Part shown: positions 22,908 through 53,559 of the stretch, piece after piece
Position numbering within the stretch: the first letter of the stretch is position 1
How the letters are laid out: every line of letters begins with the position of its first letter
Assembly: GCA_048940605.1 (NCBI GenBank)
Contig: JBHLOJ010000005.1
Location: 8,254-72,253 of the forward strand
DNA from: Promethearchaeota archaeon
Lineage (GTDB): Archaea; Asgardarchaeota; Lokiarchaeia; Sigyniarchaeales; SOKP01
Length of the DNA stretch: 64,000 nucleotides
Direction of reading: 5' to 3'
Made by a program: the position numbers and the translations under genes
The notes under the pieces: generated by a model
The model's database searches: none
What the model saw: only the letters and a program-made list of their open reading frames with translations
Told to the model about the DNA's origin: nothing

Positions 22908-23423
22908 TCAAGATATATTTACTAGCCTAATAATGTCCAGCTTTTCTAATTTCTTAAGGGCATCATTAATATCATTTCTTTTTCTATTTAAAGTTCTTGA
23001 AATCTTCAATGGAGAGGTTTTCCCCGAGCATAATAATGCGATTTGAAATTCAAAATTATCAATCATTCCCATGGTCAATACTTTTTCTAATACATTTTTA
23101 GCAATAAGTAATTTTGGGAATACCTCTGCTATTTTCCCTCCTATAGTCAGATTCTCAATATCTGCATTTAACGTTTGGAACCTACTTTTTTCGGTTGTAG
23201 TTCGGAATACTTTAAGATCAGATTGGTGTTTTTTCCAAAAACGATTAGCAATTTTATGAATAACTTCTTTTATTTTTTCAGTATCATCATCCGCATCTGA
23301 AATTGAACAGAAAAGAATTCTAGATAAAGGATGATAATATATAAAAATTGTTGAATCTTCAGACTCAACTACTCTATTCATCTCATTTACTCGTCTTCCT
23401 TTTTTCATTGATTCTTGTATCAT
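22908..23423 (-). CDS. soluble longin-like + winged-helix protein (annotated part; the homologous frame continues upstream to 23579)
   Basis: Homologous to the cytoplasmic tail of the 1391-aa protein. The C-terminal wHTH-like segment is KTSPLKISRTLNRKRNDINDALKKLEKLDIIRLV. See the finding on the in-frame TAA. Confidence 0.55.
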   Translation of the reverse strand: MIQESMKKGRRVNEMNRVVESEDSTIFIYYHPLSRILFCSISDADDDTEKIKEVIHKIANRFWKKHQSDLKVFRTTTEKSRFQTLNADIENLTIGGKIAEVFPKLLIAKNVLEKVLTMGMIDNFEFQIALLCSGKTSPLKISRTLNRKRNDINDALKKLEKLDIIRLVNIS

Positions 23424-23757: not shown

Positions 23758-24951
23758 ATGAAAGATAAGGCTAAGTACATTGTAATATATTTACTTTTTT
23801 TCCCTATTGTATTTTCAGCTTATTCAACAAGCCCATTGCTTTCTATGGCATCGTATACTAATCCCTCCATTGCATCACCGATTTTTGGTGTTTCTAATTT
23901 TGAAATAACTCAAAATGTAACATACCAAGTTGAAATCAATTTTACACTGACACAAACCATAGGATCTGGAAATTATTATTTTAAATTTTCTAGAATAAAT
24001 AGTTCATTAGATTTTATGTATACACCACCATATCAAGATAGCGAACTTCTATATAACAATATAACGGGATACGATACGATCCTTATGAATGTTAAAGATA
24101 AATTTAACAATACTCATGATTGGTTTAATGCTACGTTAGGTGCTGGAGAAAATGTTTCAATAAGTCAAAAATATATTGTCGGATTGAATGCAATTAAATT
24201 TTCTGGGATCAGCGAATCTGAGATTGGGATGTATGACACTGCAGATGAAATGTTTGAATTATACTGTAATAAATCAGAACCTTATTATGAAAGGAATGAC
24301 ACGTCTTTAATTTCGTTATCAAATAGTATTGTAAATCCTAGCGATAATCCTATAGAAAAAGCAAAAAAGATTTGTAATTGGGTTTCTGATAATATTGAAT
24401 ATACCGGGGATCTACCTAACGAGATGGGAGCTTTTTGGGCATATAATAATTCAAAAGGTGATTGTAGTGAGTTTTCAAGCTTAATGATTACATTATTGCG
24501 AATTCAAAATATCCCTGCTCGTAAAGTAACAGGTTATTTAGTATCGAATAATCCTTCATTACGCCCAAAACCAGGGGATACGTGGAGTTTTAATGCCAAT
24601 GAAATTATGGGACATGCATGGATGGAATATTATGTTCCTGATATAGGATGGATAGCTTGTGATCCCTTATGGGGATATTTTAATAGAATCGATTATCTTC
24701 GCTTTAATTTAAATGTGGGTGCGAATTTTTTCTTTCCACCTAGTTATATTATAAGTGAATTCGATACATTATTCTATGCAACTTCAGGATTCCATAATTA
24801 TGATTACAACATTACCATTACTGTTATAGAATCTAATCTCGCTCCTTTAGATTCAGTTCCATTGATGTTTTATTTGTTTATTGGAATTGGGTTAGCTGCA
24901 GTATTAATCACTGTTCTTCTTATAATACGAATTAAGAGACACAAAGGATAA
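23758..24951 (+). CDS. secreted, C-terminally anchored transglutaminase-like cysteine protease-fold protein
   Basis: N-terminal signal (YIVIYLLFFPIVFSAYS). Transglutaminase core Cys-His-Asp (GDCSEFSSLM, GHAWMEYY, ACDP). C-terminal TM helix plus RIKRHKG. Confidence 0.75.
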   Translation: MKDKAKYIVIYLLFFPIVFSAYSTSPLLSMASYTNPSIASPIFGVSNFEITQNVTYQVEINFTLTQTIGSGNYYFKFSRINSSLDFMYTPPYQDSELLYNNITGYDTILMNVKDKFNNTHDWFNATLGAGENVSISQKYIVGLNAIKFSGISESEIGMYDTADEMFELYCNKSEPYYERNDTSLISLSNSIVNPSDNPIEKAKKICNWVSDNIEYTGDLPNEMGAFWAYNNSKGDCSEFSSLMITLLRIQNIPARKVTGYLVSNNPSLRPKPGDTWSFNANEIMGHAWMEYYVPDIGWIACDPLWGYFNRIDYLRFNLNVGANFFFPPSYIISEFDTLFYATSGFHNYDYNITITVIESNLAPLDSVPLMFYLFIGIGLAAVLITVLLIIRIKRHKG

Positions 24952-24984: not shown

Positions 24985-26451
24985 TTAAATATACGTATGA
25001 ATTAAATCTACAAGGTTTTTAGAAAAATCTGGTAAATTCTTTTCAATTTTTTCGATTTGGAGAGATTTTTCAATAAATAATAGCAAGTATAGATTATACT
25101 TATCAACCTGGATTTTTTTAAATATTATTTTTTTCGATTCATCTGCTATTCCTGAAGATACTAGAAAATCCTGTTGTAAAATCTTGAACTCTTTGAATGT
25201 TTTATACAGTTCTTGAAAATGAGGAGCAGAAATTTCAAATACTTTTTCAGAAATTTCATCTTTAGAAAAATTAGATAAAATAATTCCATTTTCATTTAAT
25301 AATAATATTGCATCTGAATTGGTTTTTTTAGCAAACTTTTTTAATTGATTTCTAAATAGTTCCCGATTAGGACTCAATTGTGAAAGCCCAAAGGAATATG
25401 CTGTTATTAGACTCCAGTGATCGAAAATACTAGTTTGGAAAATCTTAATTAAGAATCTATCAGAATTCTTCTCTATCTCATCAGCAATTATCTCTAAATT
25501 CTTAAAAATTTCTTTTGAGCCTTTTAAATCTGGATCAAATTTATTTAAGCAAATTACGATAGGAGGGAATTCCTCCAAATCAATTAAGGAGTCTATAATC
25601 TTTCTGAAAAGCTTTAAAGCTTCTCCAATCCTATCAACGTCTTGAATATCAATAAAGAAGTAAATTAGATCAACATTATATAGATAAACTTTACTTTGTT
25701 CAAGGAATCTCTCTCGGTATTGTTTTTGACCAGCTAAATCCCATAGTGTGATCACAGAATTTTGCTCTTCAAAAATATGTTCTTCAGATCTTTCGACTCC
25801 CCTAGTAGGTAAAGCTTTTATAATTTCTGAATACCTTCTTCTTATCCCTAATAGAAAACTTGATTTCCCTGCTTTATCTAATCCTGTTAATAGTACTTTG
25901 ATTTGACGCCTTACAGAGAATGGATCTTTTAGATCTTTTGTGAACTCAAACAATTCCTCTCTAATTTCATCCATAATTCTTTTATGATCGTCCAGTTCTT
26001 TATCTGTTTGTATCTGTGTAGCTGCTTTATCAATCATTATTCTCAAATATTTCATGTTTTCATAAAAAAAGACTCTATCATCCTCATTGATTAATATAGT
26101 AATAGTAGCGGCTAGAGCTTGACCACGTGCAGTTTCTTCAGGAATGAGAAAAAAATATGTTAAACCATTTAATTTCAAATCTGGAAATGGTAAGATACCG
26201 AAATAGTTAACTCCTACATCTGAACCTTGTGAGTCTTGATAAACTGAATCACCCATAAGCAAACTTATAGTTTTCATAGCAATTAAAAGTCCAGATTTCT
26301 CATCTAAATCAATGGGCCAAACAACTCTAGGTGTTGGACCTCTTTCATCGAATATACTTAAAACAATTGCTTTTATTAAGTCAGAGTTGTCAATCTCTGC
26401 ATTTTCTTTATTAACTTGTTTCCCATTCAATTTAGATTCGTTATTAGTCAA
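24985..26451 (-). CDS. three-domain GTPase: novel N-terminal longin-like domain + Rag/Gtr1-like G domain + C-terminal roadblock domain
   Basis: G1 GLDKAGKS, G3 WDLAGQ, G4 NKFD. The G5 region and junction QTSIFDHWSLITAYSFGLSQLSPNRELFRNQLKKFA resemble RagA [34 protein letters not shown]. About 130 aa follow with a roadblock-like alpha-beta-beta-alpha-beta-beta-alpha pattern. Confidence 0.7.
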   Translation of the reverse strand: MTNNESKLNGKQVNKENAEIDNSDLIKAIVLSIFDERGPTPRVVWPIDLDEKSGLLIAMKTISLLMGDSVYQDSQGSDVGVNYFGILPFPDLKLNGLTYFFLIPEETARGQALAATITILINEDDRVFFYENMKYLRIMIDKAATQIQTDKELDDHKRIMDEIREELFEFTKDLKDPFSVRRQIKVLLTGLDKAGKSSFLLGIRRRYSEIIKALPTRGVERSEEHIFEEQNSVITLWDLAGQKQYRERFLEQSKVYLYNVDLIYFFIDIQDVDRIGEALKLFRKIIDSLIDLEEFPPIVICLNKFDPDLKGSKEIFKNLEIIADEIEKNSDRFLIKIFQTSIFDHWSLITAYSFGLSQLSPNRELFRNQLKKFAKKTNSDAILLLNENGIILSNFSKDEISEKVFEISAPHFQELYKTFKEFKILQQDFLVSSGIADESKKIIFKKIQVDKYNLYLLLFIEKSLQIEKIEKNLPDFSKNLVDLIHTYI

Positions 26452-28571: not shown

Positions 28572-29402
28572 GTGGAATATATGTTAAATTCATATTCTGA
28601 ATCTTCTCTTCATGATTTTTTTACTGAGATTCACAACATTTTGAGAGAAACAAATCCTAAAATAATTGAGATATGGTGTGAAATATCAAAAATTTCCTTT
28701 TTTAATAGATTGGAAAAGACAGAGTTTTATGAATTTATAGATAAATTTGATTTTATATCTCTCAGAAAGGGGAATTATATCTATTATATCGTAATTAATA
28801 AGATTTTATTTATTATTGATTGTATGAGCTTCCTGAAATATGACATCATCTATCTTTCTGAAATTTTAGACTATAATGGATTTGAGGTTTTAATAAAGGA
28901 GATTTTATTAAGAAATAATTATAAGGCAATAACTAATTTTAGATTTTCTGTGAACCCAAAGTTAAAGTTAAAATCAAACATTCATCATAAGAGATATGAG
29001 ATTGATGTTATTGGAATTTATTTAAAATATGTTATAATCATTGATGCAAAACAATGGAGGCGTAAAGATTCCTATGGATCACTAAATAGGGCAGCAAATC
29101 TACAATATAACCGTATTATGGCGTTAACACAAAATCCAGAAGCTTTTTTAAGACTTATTATTTCAATCTTAGGTGAAAGGTTCGATGTAGGGGGGCGTTT
29201 CTCTTTCATTCTTCTGCCTATAATGGTTACTCTCGAAGATAACAGCATAAAGTTAAATGAAAATCAGATACCACTGGTGTCAATACACGAATTGAATGCT
29301 TTTTTACAAGAGATCCCTAATAATCTAAATTATTTTAAAACTCTTCAAATTGATAAAGAAATTCTTAATAAGAATATAAATTATTTTTCTAAGCCCAAGT
29401 AG
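28572..29402 (+). CDS. hypothetical protein with a putative PD-(D/E)xK (Mrr-cat/NERD-like) nuclease core
   Basis: GFEVLIKEILLRNNY ... YEIDVIG ... VIIIDAKQW fits the FE..v..ll / D / (D/E)xK pattern of restriction-endonuclease-fold proteins. Confidence 0.4.
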   Translation: MEYMLNSYSESSLHDFFTEIHNILRETNPKIIEIWCEISKISFFNRLEKTEFYEFIDKFDFISLRKGNYIYYIVINKILFIIDCMSFLKYDIIYLSEILDYNGFEVLIKEILLRNNYKAITNFRFSVNPKLKLKSNIHHKRYEIDVIGIYLKYVIIIDAKQWRRKDSYGSLNRAANLQYNRIMALTQNPEAFLRLIISILGERFDVGGRFSFILLPIMVTLEDNSIKLNENQIPLVSIHELNAFLQEIPNNLNYFKTLQIDKEILNKNINYFSKPK

Positions 29403-30421
29403 TATTTTATTTGCTTTTTTATGAGATTAATAGCAATAGAAATAATCCCACTTTTCACTTTGGGATGAGAAAATAGAATTAATATCATATCTTTTAAATT
29501 TGGATTTTCTCTATCGATGGGTGCCAAATCTAATATACCTTCACTTCCTTTAACACTTATGGATTTAAGGTTTCCTGCACTTAATCCATGAATAATATCA
29601 GAACCAATCATTGAAAGATTCATTCCAATTGTACTAAACAATGATTCAGAAATCCTACTTGAAATAGCTGAAGCTAACATTGTTCCATCTGTTTTTATAA
29701 TCGCTGAAGCTTCAATTCGAGAATCAAGTGTAATTAATTCGTTTAAAATTTCATTCATGTTGGCGGGAGGTATTTTTTTCTCAGGCTCTATTTTAGCTTT
29801 TGATTCGGTTACATGTGGTTCTAATTTCTTTACCGAAATTTTTTTTGATAAGAAACTTAAAACCTCAGTCATATCTTTTTCTAGTCTTTTTTGTTTTAAT
29901 AAAGAAACCTCGGTTTCATCCGTCCTGGAAGGAATAGGTTCTAATGAAGGTTTTAGTTCTTCTTTCTCCTCTTCGAGCATTGATTGTTTAAGTTCTGAAA
30001 ATGCATCAGAAATGGGATCTTTTCTATTTGGTATTAGTGAACTCTGGAATGGTTTTGGTGGTATTTCTTGTAGTGCTTGGCTATTATCTCTTTCTATTTC
30101 TCGTTCAGTTTCGCTTAAACCATCATTAAAAGAATCGATTTCACCCATCTTGCTGTCTTCTGATGGGATTTCATCAAGATTTAATTCTATATCTTTTGGA
30201 ATTTCCTGTAATTTAACCTTTTCTTCCTTTTCATCTATAGTTTCAATTGATATCTCAATCCTTTCACGAGGAGATAATTCTTGATCTATTTTTTCCGATT
30301 TCTTTTTCTTGGATTTTTTTCTATCAGACTTGGAAGAGATTGGGAGTAAAGCCCCACATTTTCTACACGTACGGCTCACTGCTTCGTTATTTGTTGTACC
30401 ACAGTTCTGGCATATGATCAT
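29381..30421 (-). CDS. Zn-ribbon + disordered K/E-rich linker + Roadblock/LC7 (MglB-like) domain protein
   Basis: N-terminal CQNCG...CRKCG. C-terminal EASAIIKTDGTMLASAISS...LFSTIGMNLSMIGSDII...LKSISVKGSEGILDLAPI is a typical Roadblock/LC7 pattern. Strong SD GGAGGGGAG lies 8 nt upstream of the ATG. Confidence 0.75.
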   Translation of the reverse strand: MIICQNCGTTNNEAVSRTCRKCGALLPISSKSDRKKSKKKKSEKIDQELSPRERIEISIETIDEKEEKVKLQEIPKDIELNLDEIPSEDSKMGEIDSFNDGLSETEREIERDNSQALQEIPPKPFQSSLIPNRKDPISDAFSELKQSMLEEEKEELKPSLEPIPSRTDETEVSLLKQKRLEKDMTEVLSFLSKKISVKKLEPHVTESKAKIEPEKKIPPANMNEILNELITLDSRIEASAIIKTDGTMLASAISSRISESLFSTIGMNLSMIGSDIIHGLSAGNLKSISVKGSEGILDLAPIDRENPNLKDMILILFSHPKVKSGIISIAINLIKKQIKYYLGLEK

Positions 30422-30657: not shown

Positions 30658-31635
30658 CTACTTATAAATAATCTCTTTAATTATATTTGCAAAAGTTTCA
30701 AAATCTTCTTTTTGAAAAACGGGATCATCCTTAAGTAACAATAAATAATAGGGAGTTGACTCTTTTTTCAATGTTATCTGTTTAAATATAAAATTTTTTC
30801 CAAATCTTTGGAGTAGCATCCTATCTTCGTATCTATTTTCTTGTACTCCCGTATATTGGAGTGAATCTGAAAGGGTAAGAAAATAAGGTGTCGAAGCGGT
30901 GAGTAAATGCTTAGTTTCTTCATTCTTATAATATGCACCAATCACTAGAGAGTTATCATCAATAACCACCACTCCTTCTGAGTCAATTTTCTTGGCAAAC
31001 TCGATTATTGTTTTTTCAATGAGTTCCGATTTTGGATATAAGCTTAGTAGAATTTCTGACATTGCCCTTATAATAGTTCCAAAATCATAAATGGAAGTCT
31101 CATAAAAATATATTTCCTTATAATCAGTAGCGCTTTTTACTTTCTCTTTTAAATCTATGATGAGATTTTCCATTTCATTTCGTGCTCCTCTTCGTAAGGC
31201 AGGATCATATTTATGAAGAAATACATATATGGGAGGTTCAATTTCTAATTCATAAAATTGTTTAATTACATCCTTAAAATAGCTAATAGCTTCAGGGATT
31301 CTGGGTTTATTTTGAACATCGATAACATAGATTGCAATTTCAGTACCCTCGAAAAATTTACCTGGATTCTTTAAATATGAGATTCTATAGCTAATTTGTC
31401 CACCTAAATCCCATTCTGAGATTTCTTTTCCTAGAAAATCGAAAACCCTTCTTTGGGCACCTCTAGTTGGAGATAATACAGCAATTTTTGAAAATTCTCT
31501 TTGAAGAGACAGTATAATGCTGGTCTTCCCCGCATCATCCAATCCAGTGAATAATAATTTTGAGGGCTCTGGTTTCTGTGGCTCTTCCTTTTTCAAATAC
31601 ATTATTGATTGTTTTAGATCTTTCTCCAAAGTCAA
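30658..31635 (-). CDS. Rag/Gtr1-family GTPase (G domain + C-terminal roadblock domain)
   Basis: 325 aa (human RagA is 313 aa). G1 GLDDAGKTS, G3 WDLGGQ. G4 is HKYD, which matches the Rag-type HKxD rather than NKxD. AIYVIDV (RagA LIYVFDV). ETSIYDFGTIIRAMSEILLSLYPKS (RagA [23 protein letters not shown]). Roadblock-like C-terminal 125 aa. Confidence 0.75.
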   Translation of the reverse strand: MTLEKDLKQSIMYLKKEEPQKPEPSKLLFTGLDDAGKTSIILSLQREFSKIAVLSPTRGAQRRVFDFLGKEISEWDLGGQISYRISYLKNPGKFFEGTEIAIYVIDVQNKPRIPEAISYFKDVIKQFYELEIEPPIYVFLHKYDPALRRGARNEMENLIIDLKEKVKSATDYKEIYFYETSIYDFGTIIRAMSEILLSLYPKSELIEKTIIEFAKKIDSEGVVVIDDNSLVIGAYYKNEETKHLLTASTPYFLTLSDSLQYTGVQENRYEDRMLLQRFGKNFIFKQITLKKESTPYYLLLLKDDPVFQKEDFETFANIIKEIIYK

Positions 31636-36454: not shown

Positions 36455-37960
36455 ATGGAGGAATTATTTGAAACCTCAATTATAAAGGGGTTAATTTTCA
36501 GTTCATATGGAGACTTAGGTCCGCAACCAATTTATGTATGGCCTAAATATTATACTGAAAAAGAATTAGAAAAGATTAAAGAGGAAAGGCAAAGACAAAA
36601 CCTTCTTACATTAACAACCAGAGATGTAACCCAAATCTCTATAAAAAACCTTAGTTTATTTATTAGCGATAAGGTATTTACACCAGATATTGATACTCAA
36701 AATTTAACGTATTTCGCCATATTACCTTATCCAGATTTCAGTGTAACCTCTTTAACATATTTTCATTATATTAATATTAATTCTTCTAACTCTCAGATCC
36801 CTACTGCTTTTTCAATATTAGTTGAAGAAAATAGTAGAAGTTTTTTATATAATAATATAAACAGAATTAAACCTATTGTGATTGAATTTTTCAGATCATT
36901 TGATAATAATTTGATAGATAATTATCCACCTCAAGAGAAAATAGAGCCTGCTTTTTATGAATTATTCAAAAAGATAGTTGAAATTGAGAGAAGTCCATCA
37001 ACACCTATTACAACCCATAGAAAAATGAAGATTCTATTTGCTGGATTAGATGACAGTGGAAAAACTAGTTTTTTACTTTCTGTAGATCGCAAATATAGTA
37101 AGTTAATAGGTTTAAAACCAACAACAGGGGCAAGTATCAAATCAATTGAGGCTTTGGGAGCAACAATATTTTTATGGGATCTGGGAGGTCAACTTACTTT
37201 TAGAAAGAAATATATTACTAAAGCAGAAATTTATTTATATGAAGCAGATTTGTTGTTTTATTTTATTGATATCAGAAACAAAATTAGGTTTGAAGAAAGC
37301 ATTGAATATCTTTTAGATTTGAAAAAAGTATTGAAGCAGTTTAATCAAAATACTCCAATCATTTACATTTTATCAAAGGGAGATTCGGATATAATTAAAA
37401 CTGGAGAAATTATAGAAAATATCGAAATTGTGAAAAATAGATTAAATGAAATTTCACCAGAAGAATCCCCTGAGATATATGTGACTAGTATCTTTCAAAT
37501 ATTTACCATATTGAGAGCATTCTCATCTGGAATCTCAAAATTGAGCCCTAATAGAAATTTAATCAATCATAATCTTAGAAACTTCTCGATAAAAACAAGT
37601 TCATATCTTACACTGTTGTTAAGTGTAGATGGTTTAGTTTTGGCAGATTTTTATTCCCCTAAAGCGAGTAAATTAACAAAGATAACTGAATCAGAAGAAA
37701 TAATTAACGTGTTTGAGGTAACAGCACCGCAATTCGCCATGTTATTTAAAATATTCTCTAGATTTAAAGCGTTGCAACAAGAAGAAGCGGTATTTAAAGT
37801 TGCAGACTCAGTGATACTTTTCAAAAAGATTAAAGTAGCAGAGAACGACATGTTCATCTTATTTCTGATTGATAGTGAAAAAAGAAAAGAAAAAATAAAT
37901 ACTAAATTAACCACTTTCCTCGATCAAACAAATGATCTACTCTTAAGATATATATCTTAA
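36455..37960 (+). CDS. three-domain GTPase, paralog of 24985..26451 (N-terminal longin-like domain + Rag-like G domain + roadblock domain)
   Basis: G1 GLDDSGKTS, G3 WDLGGQ, degenerate G4 SKGD. VTSIFQIFTILRAFSSGISKLSPNRNLINHNLRNFS junction. The N-terminal domain aligns with ORFs at 24985, 50014 and 51220. Confidence 0.7.
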   Translation: MEELFETSIIKGLIFSSYGDLGPQPIYVWPKYYTEKELEKIKEERQRQNLLTLTTRDVTQISIKNLSLFISDKVFTPDIDTQNLTYFAILPYPDFSVTSLTYFHYININSSNSQIPTAFSILVEENSRSFLYNNINRIKPIVIEFFRSFDNNLIDNYPPQEKIEPAFYELFKKIVEIERSPSTPITTHRKMKILFAGLDDSGKTSFLLSVDRKYSKLIGLKPTTGASIKSIEALGATIFLWDLGGQLTFRKKYITKAEIYLYEADLLFYFIDIRNKIRFEESIEYLLDLKKVLKQFNQNTPIIYILSKGDSDIIKTGEIIENIEIVKNRLNEISPEESPEIYVTSIFQIFTILRAFSSGISKLSPNRNLINHNLRNFSIKTSSYLTLLLSVDGLVLADFYSPKASKLTKITESEEIINVFEVTAPQFAMLFKIFSRFKALQQEEAVFKVADSVILFKKIKVAENDMFILFLIDSEKRKEKINTKLTTFLDQTNDLLLRYIS

Positions 37961-50013: not shown

Positions 50014-51054
50014 ATGGAAAGACAAATAATTAGGGGCATTATATACAATACTCTAGATGAGCAGATTGGTCCTAATCCTAAAGTATACCTACCAGAGGAT
50101 TTTTCTCAATTAGATTTACTCCATATTAGTGTCAAAACTTTTGCGGTTCTTACAGGTGAGGGAGGACTTATACCTGAATCCTTGGTCGTATTACCATTTC
50201 CATCCTTACAATTAAAAGGATTGACTAAATATATGCAATGGGAAGATCCTGATAAACGAGGTGGCGTTGGTCATGCCAATATCACAGTTTTGTTTCAAGA
50301 AATGGATGATGTAATTTTTTATAAATATATAAAGGAAATTTCAGTTCCTTTTAATGAAATTGTTCAAAATATTACGTTCTTAGAAAAATCTAATGCAAAT
50401 GAAGACCAATTTTTAAATGAATTAATAAACCTTGAAAATGGAATTACTGAACTTTTAGAGTATCTGAGAAATCAAGAATTAAAAGAATCTAAAATCGAAG
50501 CTTTAGATCAAGCCATAGATCGAAGTATGATTGATTTTCAATTTAAGATAATTGTAGTTGGGGATCCGACCGTTGGAAAAACAAGTTTAGTCTTAAGATA
50601 TACGAATAATGCATTTAGGAGATCATATGTTTCTACGATGGGAGTTCATGTTTCTAATAAAATTTTTAGAGCTGATGATTCTACAATTATTCAACTTGTT
50701 TTATGGGATGTGGGAGGTCAAGAAAGATTTAAAATTATGAGAAAACAGTTTTATCAAGGATCCGATGCGGTATTTTTAGTTTTTGACTTAACAAATCCTG
50801 AAACATTCAGTAATATCCCCGTTTGGTTTTCGGACATTAAAAAACAAATGGAATTACGTGGCGAAGATCTTATAGGTTATGTCATTGGTAATAAAAAAGA
50901 TTTGGAGAATGAAAAGAAAATTACTAGTGAGGATGCTCAAAGATTAGCCCAAAAGTTTAATTTAGAGTATCTTGAAACGTCAGCTTTATCGGGAGAAAAT
51001 GTAGATTATGCCTTCACAACTCTCGCTAAAATACTTTACAAGTCTAGAATGTAA
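50014..51054 (+). CDS. two-domain GTPase: novel N-terminal longin-like domain + Rab/Ras-like G domain
   Basis: G1 GDPTVGKTS, switch I YVSTMG, G3 WDVGGQERF, G4 GNKKDL, G5 ETSALSG. The N-terminal 125 aa align with the N-domains of ORFs at 24985 and 36455. Confidence 0.75.
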   Translation: MERQIIRGIIYNTLDEQIGPNPKVYLPEDFSQLDLLHISVKTFAVLTGEGGLIPESLVVLPFPSLQLKGLTKYMQWEDPDKRGGVGHANITVLFQEMDDVIFYKYIKEISVPFNEIVQNITFLEKSNANEDQFLNELINLENGITELLEYLRNQELKESKIEALDQAIDRSMIDFQFKIIVVGDPTVGKTSLVLRYTNNAFRRSYVSTMGVHVSNKIFRADDSTIIQLVLWDVGGQERFKIMRKQFYQGSDAVFLVFDLTNPETFSNIPVWFSDIKKQMELRGEDLIGYVIGNKKDLENEKKITSEDAQRLAQKFNLEYLETSALSGENVDYAFTTLAKILYKSRM

Positions 51055-51219: not shown

Positions 51220-52245
51220 ATGTCTCAAGAGATTATCAAAGCAATCATATATACTTCGCTTGATGAAAACCTCGGTCCGAATCCTGTTTTATGGATTCCA
51301 CTTGATTTACCAGAAAAGATTCGTATGGGTGTAAGTATTAAAACTATTACTATGCTTACCACTGATCAAGGAATAGTTCCTAATTCATTAGTAATAATGC
51401 CTTTCCCTGCCTTCAAATTAAAAGGAATTATAAAATATATTGAGAGAGAAGATGACTCTCGACGAGGAGGTGTAGCATTATCATCAATAGCCCTGTTGTT
51501 TAATGAGACGGATGATCCTATTTTTTATAAGTATATGGAATATCTTGAGCCCATATTTTCTGAATGTGCTAACAACCTTATTGTTTTAGAAAATGGGGAA
51601 GCAAAAAGTGATGAAATCTTTATTGAGATACATCATTTCCGTCAAAAATTAACTGAATTATTAGATGATTTATATCAAAAAGAAATAACATCTTCTGAAA
51701 TAGAAGCTTTTCCTGAGGAGGAAATTAAAGAAGAATTACTAGAGTATAATTTCAAATTGATCGTATGTGGTGATCCAGGAGTAGGAAAAACTAGTACAAT
51801 TTTAAGATTCACAGATAACGCTTTTATGCGAACTTATGTGCCTACCCTTGGTGTAAGCATTTCCGAAAGACTAGTATCATTAGGAGATAAACACATCAAT
51901 CTAATTTTGTGGGATATCGCAGGACAATCAAAATTTGAAATAATGAGAAGACACTTTTATAAAGGTACCGACGCCGTGATTCTAATATTTGATCTGACAA
52001 ACCGTAAATCATTTGAAAGTGTTTCTAATTGGATTAATGATATAAGAAAATATGAGCAGGAAATAATAGGGCTAATTTTAGGAAATAAGGAAGATCTAAT
52101 AGGTGAGCGAAAAATTCCTACTGAAGAAGCCTTAGAGATTGCTAAAACTTTTAATTTTGAATATGCTGAAACATCTGCATTAACAGGTAAAAATGTAGAG
52201 CAAAGTTTTTATAAAGTAGCAGAAACTTTATTTAAATCAAAATAA
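51220..52245 (+). CDS. two-domain GTPase, tandem paralog of 50014..51054
   Basis: G1 GDPGVGKTS, G3 WDIAGQSKF, G4 GNKEDL, G5 ETSALTG. Same N-terminal domain (IIKAIIYTSLDENLGPNPVLWIP, MPFPAFKLKG, LLFNETDDPIFYKYMEYL). Confidence 0.75.
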   Translation: MSQEIIKAIIYTSLDENLGPNPVLWIPLDLPEKIRMGVSIKTITMLTTDQGIVPNSLVIMPFPAFKLKGIIKYIEREDDSRRGGVALSSIALLFNETDDPIFYKYMEYLEPIFSECANNLIVLENGEAKSDEIFIEIHHFRQKLTELLDDLYQKEITSSEIEAFPEEEIKEELLEYNFKLIVCGDPGVGKTSTILRFTDNAFMRTYVPTLGVSISERLVSLGDKHINLILWDIAGQSKFEIMRRHFYKGTDAVILIFDLTNRKSFESVSNWINDIRKYEQEIIGLILGNKEDLIGERKIPTEEALEIAKTFNFEYAETSALTGKNVEQSFYKVAETLFKSK

Positions 52246-52989: not shown

Positions 52990-53559
52990 CTATTTTGAAT
53001 CCTTTAATTCATTAAGGGTCGCTTTAGATTCATGGTATAATTTTTTGATTATAGCTTGAAAGGCATCATATACACGTTCGCCTGTTTTCGCTGAGGTTAA
53101 ATAATAACCAAGAAGGTTTTTTTTCTTTACTAATCTTTCAATTTTAGCATTATCTATATTATCCTTATTAACAAGATCAACTTTATTAGCGAAAATTATA
53201 ATAGGTATGGCTCCACAAAATTGCTTTAAATCGTCATACCAATGTATAACATTCTTAAGACTTTCCTTACCAAGCTTATTTTCTTCAAGTGAATAAACAA
53301 TTATTCCTGCTCTACTGTCCTTATAAAAAGATGGACGTAAGAAATGAAACTCATCCTGACCAGCGATATCCCAAAAAAATAACAAGCATTGATCATTTTC
53401 TATTTCCTCTACATATTTCGAAAATTGGGCTCCTAATGTTTTTATATATTCTTTTTGGAAACTACCTTTAGTAAATTTTTGAATTAAACTAGTTTTTCCC
53501 ACCATACCATCTCCAACGACAGTAACTTTAAACTTAAATATATCTTGAGGTTTATTCAT
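52990..53559 (-). CDS. stand-alone Rab/Ras-like small GTPase
   Basis: G1 GDGMVGKTS, switch I YIKTLG, G3 WDIAGQDEF, G4 ANKVDL, G5 TSAKTG. 189 aa with no C-terminal Cys. Confidence 0.8.
   Translation of the reverse strand: MNKPQDIFKFKVTVVGDGMVGKTSLIQKFTKGSFQKEYIKTLGAQFSKYVEEIENDQCLLFFWDIAGQDEFHFLRPSFYKDSRAGIIVYSLEENKLGKESLKNVIHWYDDLKQFCGAIPIIIFANKVDLVNKDNIDNAKIERLVKKKNLLGYYLTSAKTGERVYDAFQAIIKKLYHESKATLNELKDSK

Follow-up and report, generated by a model that had tools for sequence, protein, structure and literature searches.

In eukaryotic nutrient signalling, Rag GTPases are switched off by longin-domain GTPase-activating proteins (GAPs), namely GATOR1 and folliculin. In Lokiarchaeum, fusions of longin domains with Arf-like GTPases and of roadblock domains with Rag-like ones have been on record since 2016 (PMC4917890, citing Klinger et al.), longin-GTPase fusions were noted again in 2020 (10.1101/2020.10.19.343400), and the longin-GTPase-roadblock (LGR) layout was derived from AlphaFold models of Candidatus Prometheoarchaeum syntrophicum MK-D1 proteins by Tran et al. 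in 2024 (Commun Biol, PMC10933270). GAP longins, for their part, have been reported to be marked by a GP motif that closes the β1-β2 loop or opens β2, together with an arginine finger (PMC12290439, Traffic 2025): the GP motif is present in FLCN, NPRL2, SMCR8 and C9orf72, is absent from FNIP2, NPRL3 and the longins of TRAPP, adaptin and DENND proteins, and occurs with an arginine finger in some Asgard longins, whose partner GTPases were posed as a question. Here we analyse an LGR gene at positions 24985-26451 of a 64,000-nucleotide stretch of a Promethearchaeota archaeon genome (assembly GCA_048940605.1, contig JBHLOJ010000005.1, positions 8,254 to 72,253), hereafter the window, and find that the longin domain of its product is, by predicted fold and by motifs, a well-supported member of the FLCN/NPRL2 GAP class. 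The architecture as such, which a preliminary description of the window had implied to be new, is not: the fusions have been known since 2016 and the exact LGR domain order is listed for MK-D1 (PMC10933270), so that the value of the analysis lies in the motif-level assignment and in a pair of arginine-bearing (Arg+) and arginine-less (Arg-) paralogues rather than in a new kind of protein.

The open reading frame (ORF) is real as described, running on the (-) strand for 488 aa in a window of approximately 29% G+C, with every peptide segment quoted in the preliminary description found at the residues given for it. In the protein database, gene call P0041 is identical over its 488 aa, and an NCBI protein reaches 99% identity. 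The gene and its parts, as delimited by AlphaFold2 (AF2) models, structure and profile searches and conservation, are the following.

24985..26451, (-) strand: LGR gene, 488 aa plus stop codon, TTG start in the ORF list
26383..26451, (-) strand: residues 1-23, N-terminal tail of predicted disorder, with a predicted local distance difference test (pLDDT) value <50 in both AF2 models
25927..26382, (-) strand: residues 24-175, predicted longin domain (ββ-α-βββ-αα) of the FLCN/NPRL2 class, from AF2, Foldseek and a profile match
26335..26340, (-) strand: G38-P39, the GP motif, first residues of longin strand β2 (38-45), from AF2 and conservation
26122..26130, (-) strand: A108-R109-G110, in the β4-β5 loop, candidate arginine finger, from AF2 and conservation
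25903..25926, (-) strand: residues 176-183, linker DPFSVRRQ from longin helix α3 to the G domain
25378..25902, (-) strand: residues 184-358, Rag/Gtr-type G domain, from PF04670, PDB sequence matches and Foldseek
24988..25377, (-) strand: residues 359-488, C-terminal roadblock domain, from the AF2 topology α-ββ-α-βββ-α over residues 363-487 and Foldseek

Modelled from an alignment of 22 homologues (pLDDT 76.5, predicted template modelling score, pTM, 0.73), the N-terminal domain is predicted to consist of strands 26-35 and 38-45, helix 51-67, strands 83-89, 94-104 and 112-122, and helices 123-149 and 153-175. The order β-β-α-β-β-β-α deduced earlier from the hydrophobic pattern is thus reproduced by AF2 with one extra helix, and this third helix completes the canonical longin topology, β-β-α-β-β-β-α-α (PMC10933270). 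The best Foldseek match of the model in the PDB is the Lokiarchaeota longin 8yqg (E 2e-7, target template modelling (TM) score 0.71), followed in order by GATOR1 chains, the Lst4 longin, a chain of the FLCN-FNIP2-Rag-Ragulator complex and chains of C9orf72-SMCR8; neither another topology nor an unrelated family, the outcomes set beforehand as refuting a longin-like assignment, was returned by AF2 and Foldseek. A roadblock identity of the N-terminal domain was also considered and rejected on topology, as the domain lacks an N-terminal helix and ends in two helices.

In sequence searches, a Pfam and NCBIfam scan of the protein's own N-terminal domain gave no match, and a narrow profile built from orthologues only retrieved just chance-level topoisomerase VI matches from the PDB sequences. 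A broad profile of 44 diverse members reached 8yqg at E 1.5e-17, and a hidden Markov model (HMM) search of the PDB sequences with the broad profile reached neither FLCN nor NPRL2. When 90 family members were scanned singly against Pfam, Folliculin (PF11704) was matched by eight of them, with a best E of 1.3e-6 and one member exceeding the curated cut-off (24.5 vs 23.3 bits), and it was the sole recurrent family among their matches that was neither GTPase nor AAA. The pattern of the N-terminal domain is not a product of chance, given E-values far under 1e-5 and conservation in hundreds of homologues. AF2, Foldseek, the 8yqg profile match and the PF11704 matches together bear out the proposal of an in-cis fusion in which a Rag-like GTPase with a roadblock domain carries a longin of the Rag-regulator class.

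The GTPase half likewise agrees with what had been described, namely a G domain with a Rag-like G5 region and junction followed by a roadblock domain. Pfam Gtr1_RagA (PF04670) matches residues 185-397 (E 1.1e-23, 84.3 bits against a cut-off of 22), crossing the G5/roadblock junction before ending at residue 397, and the G motifs are complete, with GLDKAGKS at 190-197 (G1), T216, DLAGQ at 238-242, NKFD at 303-306 and a Rag-type G5, TSI, at 340-342; G1-G5 are invariant or nearly so across homologues. Among PDB sequences, the G domain is best matched by two Asgard Rag-like proteins, 8yl2 and 8zla, with Gtr1 and RagA at E 4e-11 to 4e-10. In the full-length AF2 model, built from a 43-sequence alignment (pLDDT 71.5, pTM 0.67), residues 173-183 are without helix or strand, switch I (207-232) has pLDDT <50, and the C-terminal domain is composed of helix 363-377, strands 379-385 and 391-396, helix 399-421, strands 429-433, 441-449 and 452-460, and helix 463-487. 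Foldseek aligns the G and roadblock domains jointly, over approximately 300-320 columns, with LokiRagO, RagA/RagC and Gtr1/Gtr2 at target-normalised TM scores of about 0.64-0.74 (LokiRagO, 8yl2: E 6e-19, target TM 0.73). The isolated C-terminal segment has no Pfam match, either in the LGR protein or in a 346-aa neighbour described below, and the roadblock assignment therefore rests on structure. The G and C-terminal domains are thus confirmed as a Rag/Gtr-type GTPase with a Rag-type roadblock.

These results also bear on the names in public databases, where the best 120 of the full-length matches described below are, if named, mostly called 'ADP-ribosylation factor-like protein'. The protein would on that account be an Arf-like GTPase whose N-terminal region serves as an Arf-type membrane anchor, and besides the names, Pfam Arf (PF00025) does match (E 8e-16, 58 bits) and the LGR class is structurally near Arf too (PMC10933270). 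However, Gtr1_RagA scores 84 bits against 58 for Arf and spans the G5/roadblock junction, the G domain is succeeded by a Rag-type roadblock, and what precedes the G domain is a globular longin of 150 residues rather than an amphipathic helix, so that an Arf identity, already disfavoured, is very improbable.

The LGR protein is widely conserved. A full-length protein database search gave 503 matches at E <= 1e-10, the best 120 of which are 458-490 aa long and 75-100% identical, and orthologues of 487-488 aa number in the hundreds. A scan of GTDB species representatives gave 145 loci, and the counts over 80 orthologues, species or loci given throughout refer to the best 80 of these, which are 64-94% identical, essentially full-length and nearly all from Promethearchaeota/Promethearchaeia; the nearest genome matches, at no more than 94% identity, are metagenome-assembled genomes (MAGs) of Promethearchaeia/Promethearchaeota, that is, of Lokiarchaeial Asgard archaea. 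The public labels of near-identical orthologues vary among Thor-, Hod-, Hermod-, Odin- and Promethearchaeota, and one (L045) is labelled as a Nanopelagicaceae bacterium MAG, a mixture that points to inconsistent or erroneous bin taxonomy rather than to a wide distribution. The protein is conserved and syntenic in at least 80 Lokiarchaeial species.

Conservation is not confined to the GTPase. At a threshold of >= 97% across the 80 orthologues, 47 of 127 positions are invariant in longin residues 24-150, 56 of 175 in the G domain (184-358), 36 of 130 in the roadblock domain (359-488) and 0 of 23 in the N-terminal tail, which shows that the longin is constrained to the same degree as the G domain and that all three domains are under strong purifying selection. 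Linker residues D176 and P177 are almost invariant among close homologues. The tail itself is poorly conserved, with a mean major-residue frequency of 0.30 in the 80 orthologues, and is Lys-rich in many members of the homologue alignment (e.g., MTKSKDKKKKGKP), and it is possible from this composition that a polybasic tail binds membrane or nucleic acid. Two further segments combine low model confidence with conservation: the loop at 68-80 after longin helix 1 (approximately 26212-26250) has pLDDT <50 yet invariant Y71 and Q72, and switch I (207-232, approximately 25756-25833) carries invariant P215, T216, G218, R221 and E224 despite its pLDDT <50. Both may be interaction surfaces that become ordered solely in complex.

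The motifs that set GAP longins apart are among the constrained positions. G38, P39, A108, R109 and G110 are all invariant in the 80 orthologues. The arginine fingers of the GAP-class longins are FLCN R164, NPRL2 R78 and SMCR8 R147. In hhalign comparisons of the broad family profile with human FLCN and NPRL2, for which sequences identical to PDB chains were used (FLCN, 6ulg_L), the family segment LTYFFLIPEETARGQALAATITIL falls on FLCN 147-181 and places R109 on the LARG arginine R164, in a short and weak match (E 0.039, probability 1.3%), and the segment IKAIVLSIFDERGPTPRVVWP falls on NPRL2 7-31 and places the GP motif on G20-P21, in a match that is again short and weak (E 5e-4, probability 30%). 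Both matches are limited to the surroundings of the GP and Arg motifs and agree with the fold search, as support and not as proof; R109 is a putative catalytic arginine finger.

The same longin occurs in several contexts. An exhaustive search with the N-domain profile gave 160 clusters (50% identity) at E <= 1e-3, and 118 near-complete domain instances, the LGR protein included, were classified by architecture; they are the diverged family members referred to below.

Longin plus GTPase ('LG'), the G domain Ras/Rab-like where checked: 40/118
Stand-alone longin: 27/118
Longin plus Rag-like GTPase plus roadblock ('LGR'): 23/118
Longin behind an N-terminal extension of approximately 100 aa: 14/118
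Longin with other C-terminal partners: 14/118

The longins behind the extension of approximately 100 aa are probably of the Roadblock-Longin type from which 8yqg derives. Among the 118, the motif residues and other marked positions are largely kept, with G38 present in 109, P39 in 103, P46 in 102, K60 in 100, P88 in 106, R109 in 89 and G110 in 85. The 23 LGR sequences fall into two groups, one Arg-less (n=12) and the other Arg-bearing, the latter made up of the LGR protein, the sequences nearest to it and two that are more distant.

A representative of each group is encoded in the window itself. An HMM scan found five further genes of the longin, G or roadblock kind, of which the one with the full LGR layout is the following.

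36455..37960, (+) strand: LGR#2, 501-aa paralogue (HMM: longin 1.7e-35, G 2.7e-63, roadblock 1.8e-40; Pfam Gtr1_RagA 8e-19)

LGR#2 is 35% identical to the LGR protein, and its alignment shows the GP motif kept, no Arg at the finger position, an insert of approximately 20 residues after longin β2, and a G4 that reads SKGD instead of NKxD. Its orthologue in GCA_019058365.1 (L004:575-2077; 68% identity) is likewise Arg-less and lies at the same relative position, so that an Arg+ and an Arg- LGR gene stand 10 kb apart both in the window and in the related genome. The pair recalls the catalytic and non-catalytic partners FLCN/FNIP2 and NPRL2/NPRL3, although this is only an analogy, and we infer no more than that LGR#2 is a candidate partner of the LGR protein.

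We propose that the LGR protein could act as a self-contained, dimer-dependent switch with a built-in longin GAP, a model-based reading to which we give an even chance. LGR protomers would pair via their roadblock domains, as Rags do, and probably also via their longins, as in FLCN-FNIP and NPRL2-NPRL3; the GP motif would then position R109 to enter the nucleotide pocket of a G domain of the Rag-like type. That G domain could be the one of the same protomer, more likely that of the homodimer partner, or, in a heterodimer, that of the Arg-less LGR#2. GTP hydrolysis would thereby become dimer-dependent and self-timed, and LGR would represent a one-protein version of the Rag and longin-GAP pair that eukaryotes keep as separate proteins. 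A built-in GAP is favoured by the invariance of the GP and A-R-G motifs, by the constraint on the longin, by the Arg+ and Arg- subgroups and by the observation that switch I of the MK-D1 longin-GTPases offers no arginine of its own, so that they may depend on a GAP (PMC10933270).

Several points weigh against such a switch. The full-length model has only the moderate scores given above and leaves switch I unmodelled; the equivalence of R109 rests on the weak hhalign matches, the loop position in AF2 and the shared LARG/TARG motif; and in 8yqg, the solved relative, the GP motif comes without the finger Arg, a residue that approximately 25% of the 118 family members also lack, which means that GAP competence is not uniform across the family. 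Most longin and roadblock domains are, moreover, dimeric platforms that serve mainly as guanine nucleotide exchange factors (GEFs) and occasionally as GAPs (PMC10933270). The longin might then be a non-catalytic platform or dimerisation module that does no more than join protomers or dock an effector or scaffold, with R109 and the GP motif in structural or binding roles and hydrolysis either intrinsic or stimulated by a separate GAP. That 8yqg is dimeric according to its PDB title while lacking the finger Arg, that the finger is absent from 12 of the 23 LGR sequences, and that AF2 homodimer predictions of MK-D1 longin-GTPases show typical longin-longin pairing (PMC10933270) are all in keeping with a platform. 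Against it stand the invariance of A108-R109-G110 and G38-P39 in 80 species and the retention of R109 in 89 and of G38 in 109 of the 118 diverged members, since both motifs are reported to be specific to GAP longins and absent from the platform or GEF longins of TRAPP and adaptin (PMC12290439). We regard a purely non-catalytic longin as a real possibility, but a clearly less probable one than the built-in GAP.

An extension of the built-in GAP reading would have the Arg+ LGR protein and the Arg-less LGR#2 heterodimerise via both roadblocks and longins in an arrangement resembling the ancestral state, from which the eukaryotic Rag GAPs that act in trans would have arisen by fission of longin-GTPases. 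We hold this to be quite unlikely; if true, two polypeptides would hold both a Rag heterodimer and a catalytic/non-catalytic longin-GAP heterodimer, which take four proteins in eukaryotes.

The remaining genes of the longin, G or roadblock kind in the window are these.

30658-31635, (-) strand: Rag-like G-roadblock protein, 325 aa, close homologue of the homotetrameric crystallised LokiRagO (8yl2; E 5.9e-87, full-length)
50014-51054 and 51220-52245, both (+) strand: tandem LG genes, longin with GP and RG motifs, Ras/Rab-like G domain (PF00071, E ~3e-47), no roadblock
52990-53559, (-) strand: small Ras-like GTPase adjoining the LG genes

They bring up a further explanation, in which the longin acts as a GAP for another GTPase, be it the LokiRagO-like protein at 30658-31635 or a Rab/Arf-like one, and the LGR G domain gates this activity in a GTPase cascade. 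In its favour, the longin family is also found on Ras/Rab-like G domains in the LG proteins, on its own, or behind the extension of approximately 100 aa, and so behaves as a portable module; eukaryotic longin GAPs act in trans; and in 56 of the 80 species the LokiRagO-like gene and the LGR gene are approximately 4 kb apart. The simplest pointer to the substrate is nonetheless the G domain to which the longin is fused via a short linker, the syntenic genes stand on mixed strands, separated by NrdD and unrelated genes and forming no operon, and a search of the 8 kb around a more distant orthologue revealed no ORF with any of the three domains apart from the LGR itself. A substrate elsewhere is therefore unlikely.

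Besides the Rag-like G-roadblock gene, the conserved neighbourhood comprises the following genes, with synteny given as the number of the 80 loci that contain each of them.

29381-30421, (-) strand: 346-aa Zn-ribbon protein, zinc ribbon from weak Pfam matches, 65/80
276-aa protein, 71/80
NrdD, between the 276-aa protein and the LGR gene in synteny order, 73/80
23758-24951, (+) strand: transglutaminase-like membrane protein (PF01841, E 2.6e-26) with hydrophobic N- and C-terminal segments
22908-23423, (-) strand: 171-aa protein with a weak TrmB-type winged-helix match at its C-terminus (E 1e-4), 69/80
HhH protein, 65/80
176-aa protein, 63/80
Methyltransferase, 61/80

The transglutaminase-like gene is convergent with the LGR gene in 64 of the 80 loci, at a median gap of 33 bp. 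The 346-aa protein combines an N-terminal zinc ribbon with a long, acidic, low-complexity middle and a C-terminal pattern of approximately 120 aa that is roadblock/LC7-like and without a Pfam match. An operon with NrdD or with the transglutaminase-like gene was considered as a functional clue and rejected despite the strong synteny, and given its mixed strands and unrelated functions we read the block as vertically inherited.

Synteny also helps to relate the gene to MK-D1, whose LGR paralogues WP_147663355.1, WP_147663364.1 and WP_147663503.1 share the domain order of the LGR protein (PMC10933270). A 44%-identical homologue, P0162, is followed downstream by a convergent transglutaminase-core gene, two small genes and a methyltransferase, and the G5 region of P0162 has a close counterpart in that of WP_147663355.1 (HFFNTSIFEAYSLNKSFSEGINAL). 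As several of the downstream genes of P0162 are shared with the LGR gene, the P0162-like G5 argues for orthology, and WP_147663355.1 is most likely the MK-D1 orthologue, as judged from sequence fragments and not from a full alignment. The MK-D1 study is built on AlphaFold models together with an alignment of G domains, and the passages of it covered here report no assignment of the fused longin to a GAP class, no GP or Arg motifs and no Arg+/Arg- split (PMC10933270); a literature search on the protein names of PDB entries 8yl2, 8zla and 8yqg found no publication. Within the literature searched, the motif-level placing of the fused longin in the FLCN/NPRL2 GAP class, the gene-fusion evidence that ties GP-motif longins to Rag-type GTPases, and the conserved pair of Arg+ and Arg- LGR paralogues thus appear to be additions. 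The LGR family offers a gene-fusion answer to the question of which Asgard GTPases partner GP-motif longins (PMC12290439), and the fusion itself is a compact, single-polypeptide system in which to study a longin GAP on a Rag-like G domain.

Set beside the known systems, the LGR protein shares with RagA-D, Gtr1/2, LokiRagO (8yl2) and LokiRagM (8zla) the PF04670 G family, the TSI-type G5 and the succession of G domain and C-terminal roadblock, whereas none of these has an N-terminal longin. Asgard archaea have been reported to be without a homologue of the mTOR catalytic (PI3-kinase) domain, so the output of an LGR switch must differ from that of the eukaryotic Rags. Its closest match on the longin side, the longin domain of the Lokiarchaeota Roadblock-Longin protein of PDB entry 8yqg, is both a clear sequence homologue and the best structural match and shares the GP motif, but belongs to a protein of another architecture and lacks the finger Arg that LGR has in R109. 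With FLCN-FNIP, NPRL2-NPRL3 and C9orf72-SMCR8 the LGR protein shares the longin fold and the GP motif at the β1-β2 turn, and with FLCN also the context of the arginine, L-A-R164-G being matched by A-R109-G110 in the β4-β5 loop. Those longin GAPs, however, act in trans as heterodimers with DENN or other C-terminal domains, while the LGR longin is covalently joined to its presumed substrate class; being followed by a GTPase and a roadblock and by no DENN domain, it stands outside the FLCN/NPRL2/SMCR8 protein families, which, at marginal sequence similarity, it may resemble at most in its working. A likeness can finally be drawn to bacterial MglA-MglB, in which a Ras-like GTPase is regulated by a partner of the roadblock/longin superfamily, except that MglB is a separate roadblock homodimer and MglA brings its own arginine in switch I, whereas the candidate arginine of LGR would be supplied by the fused longin.

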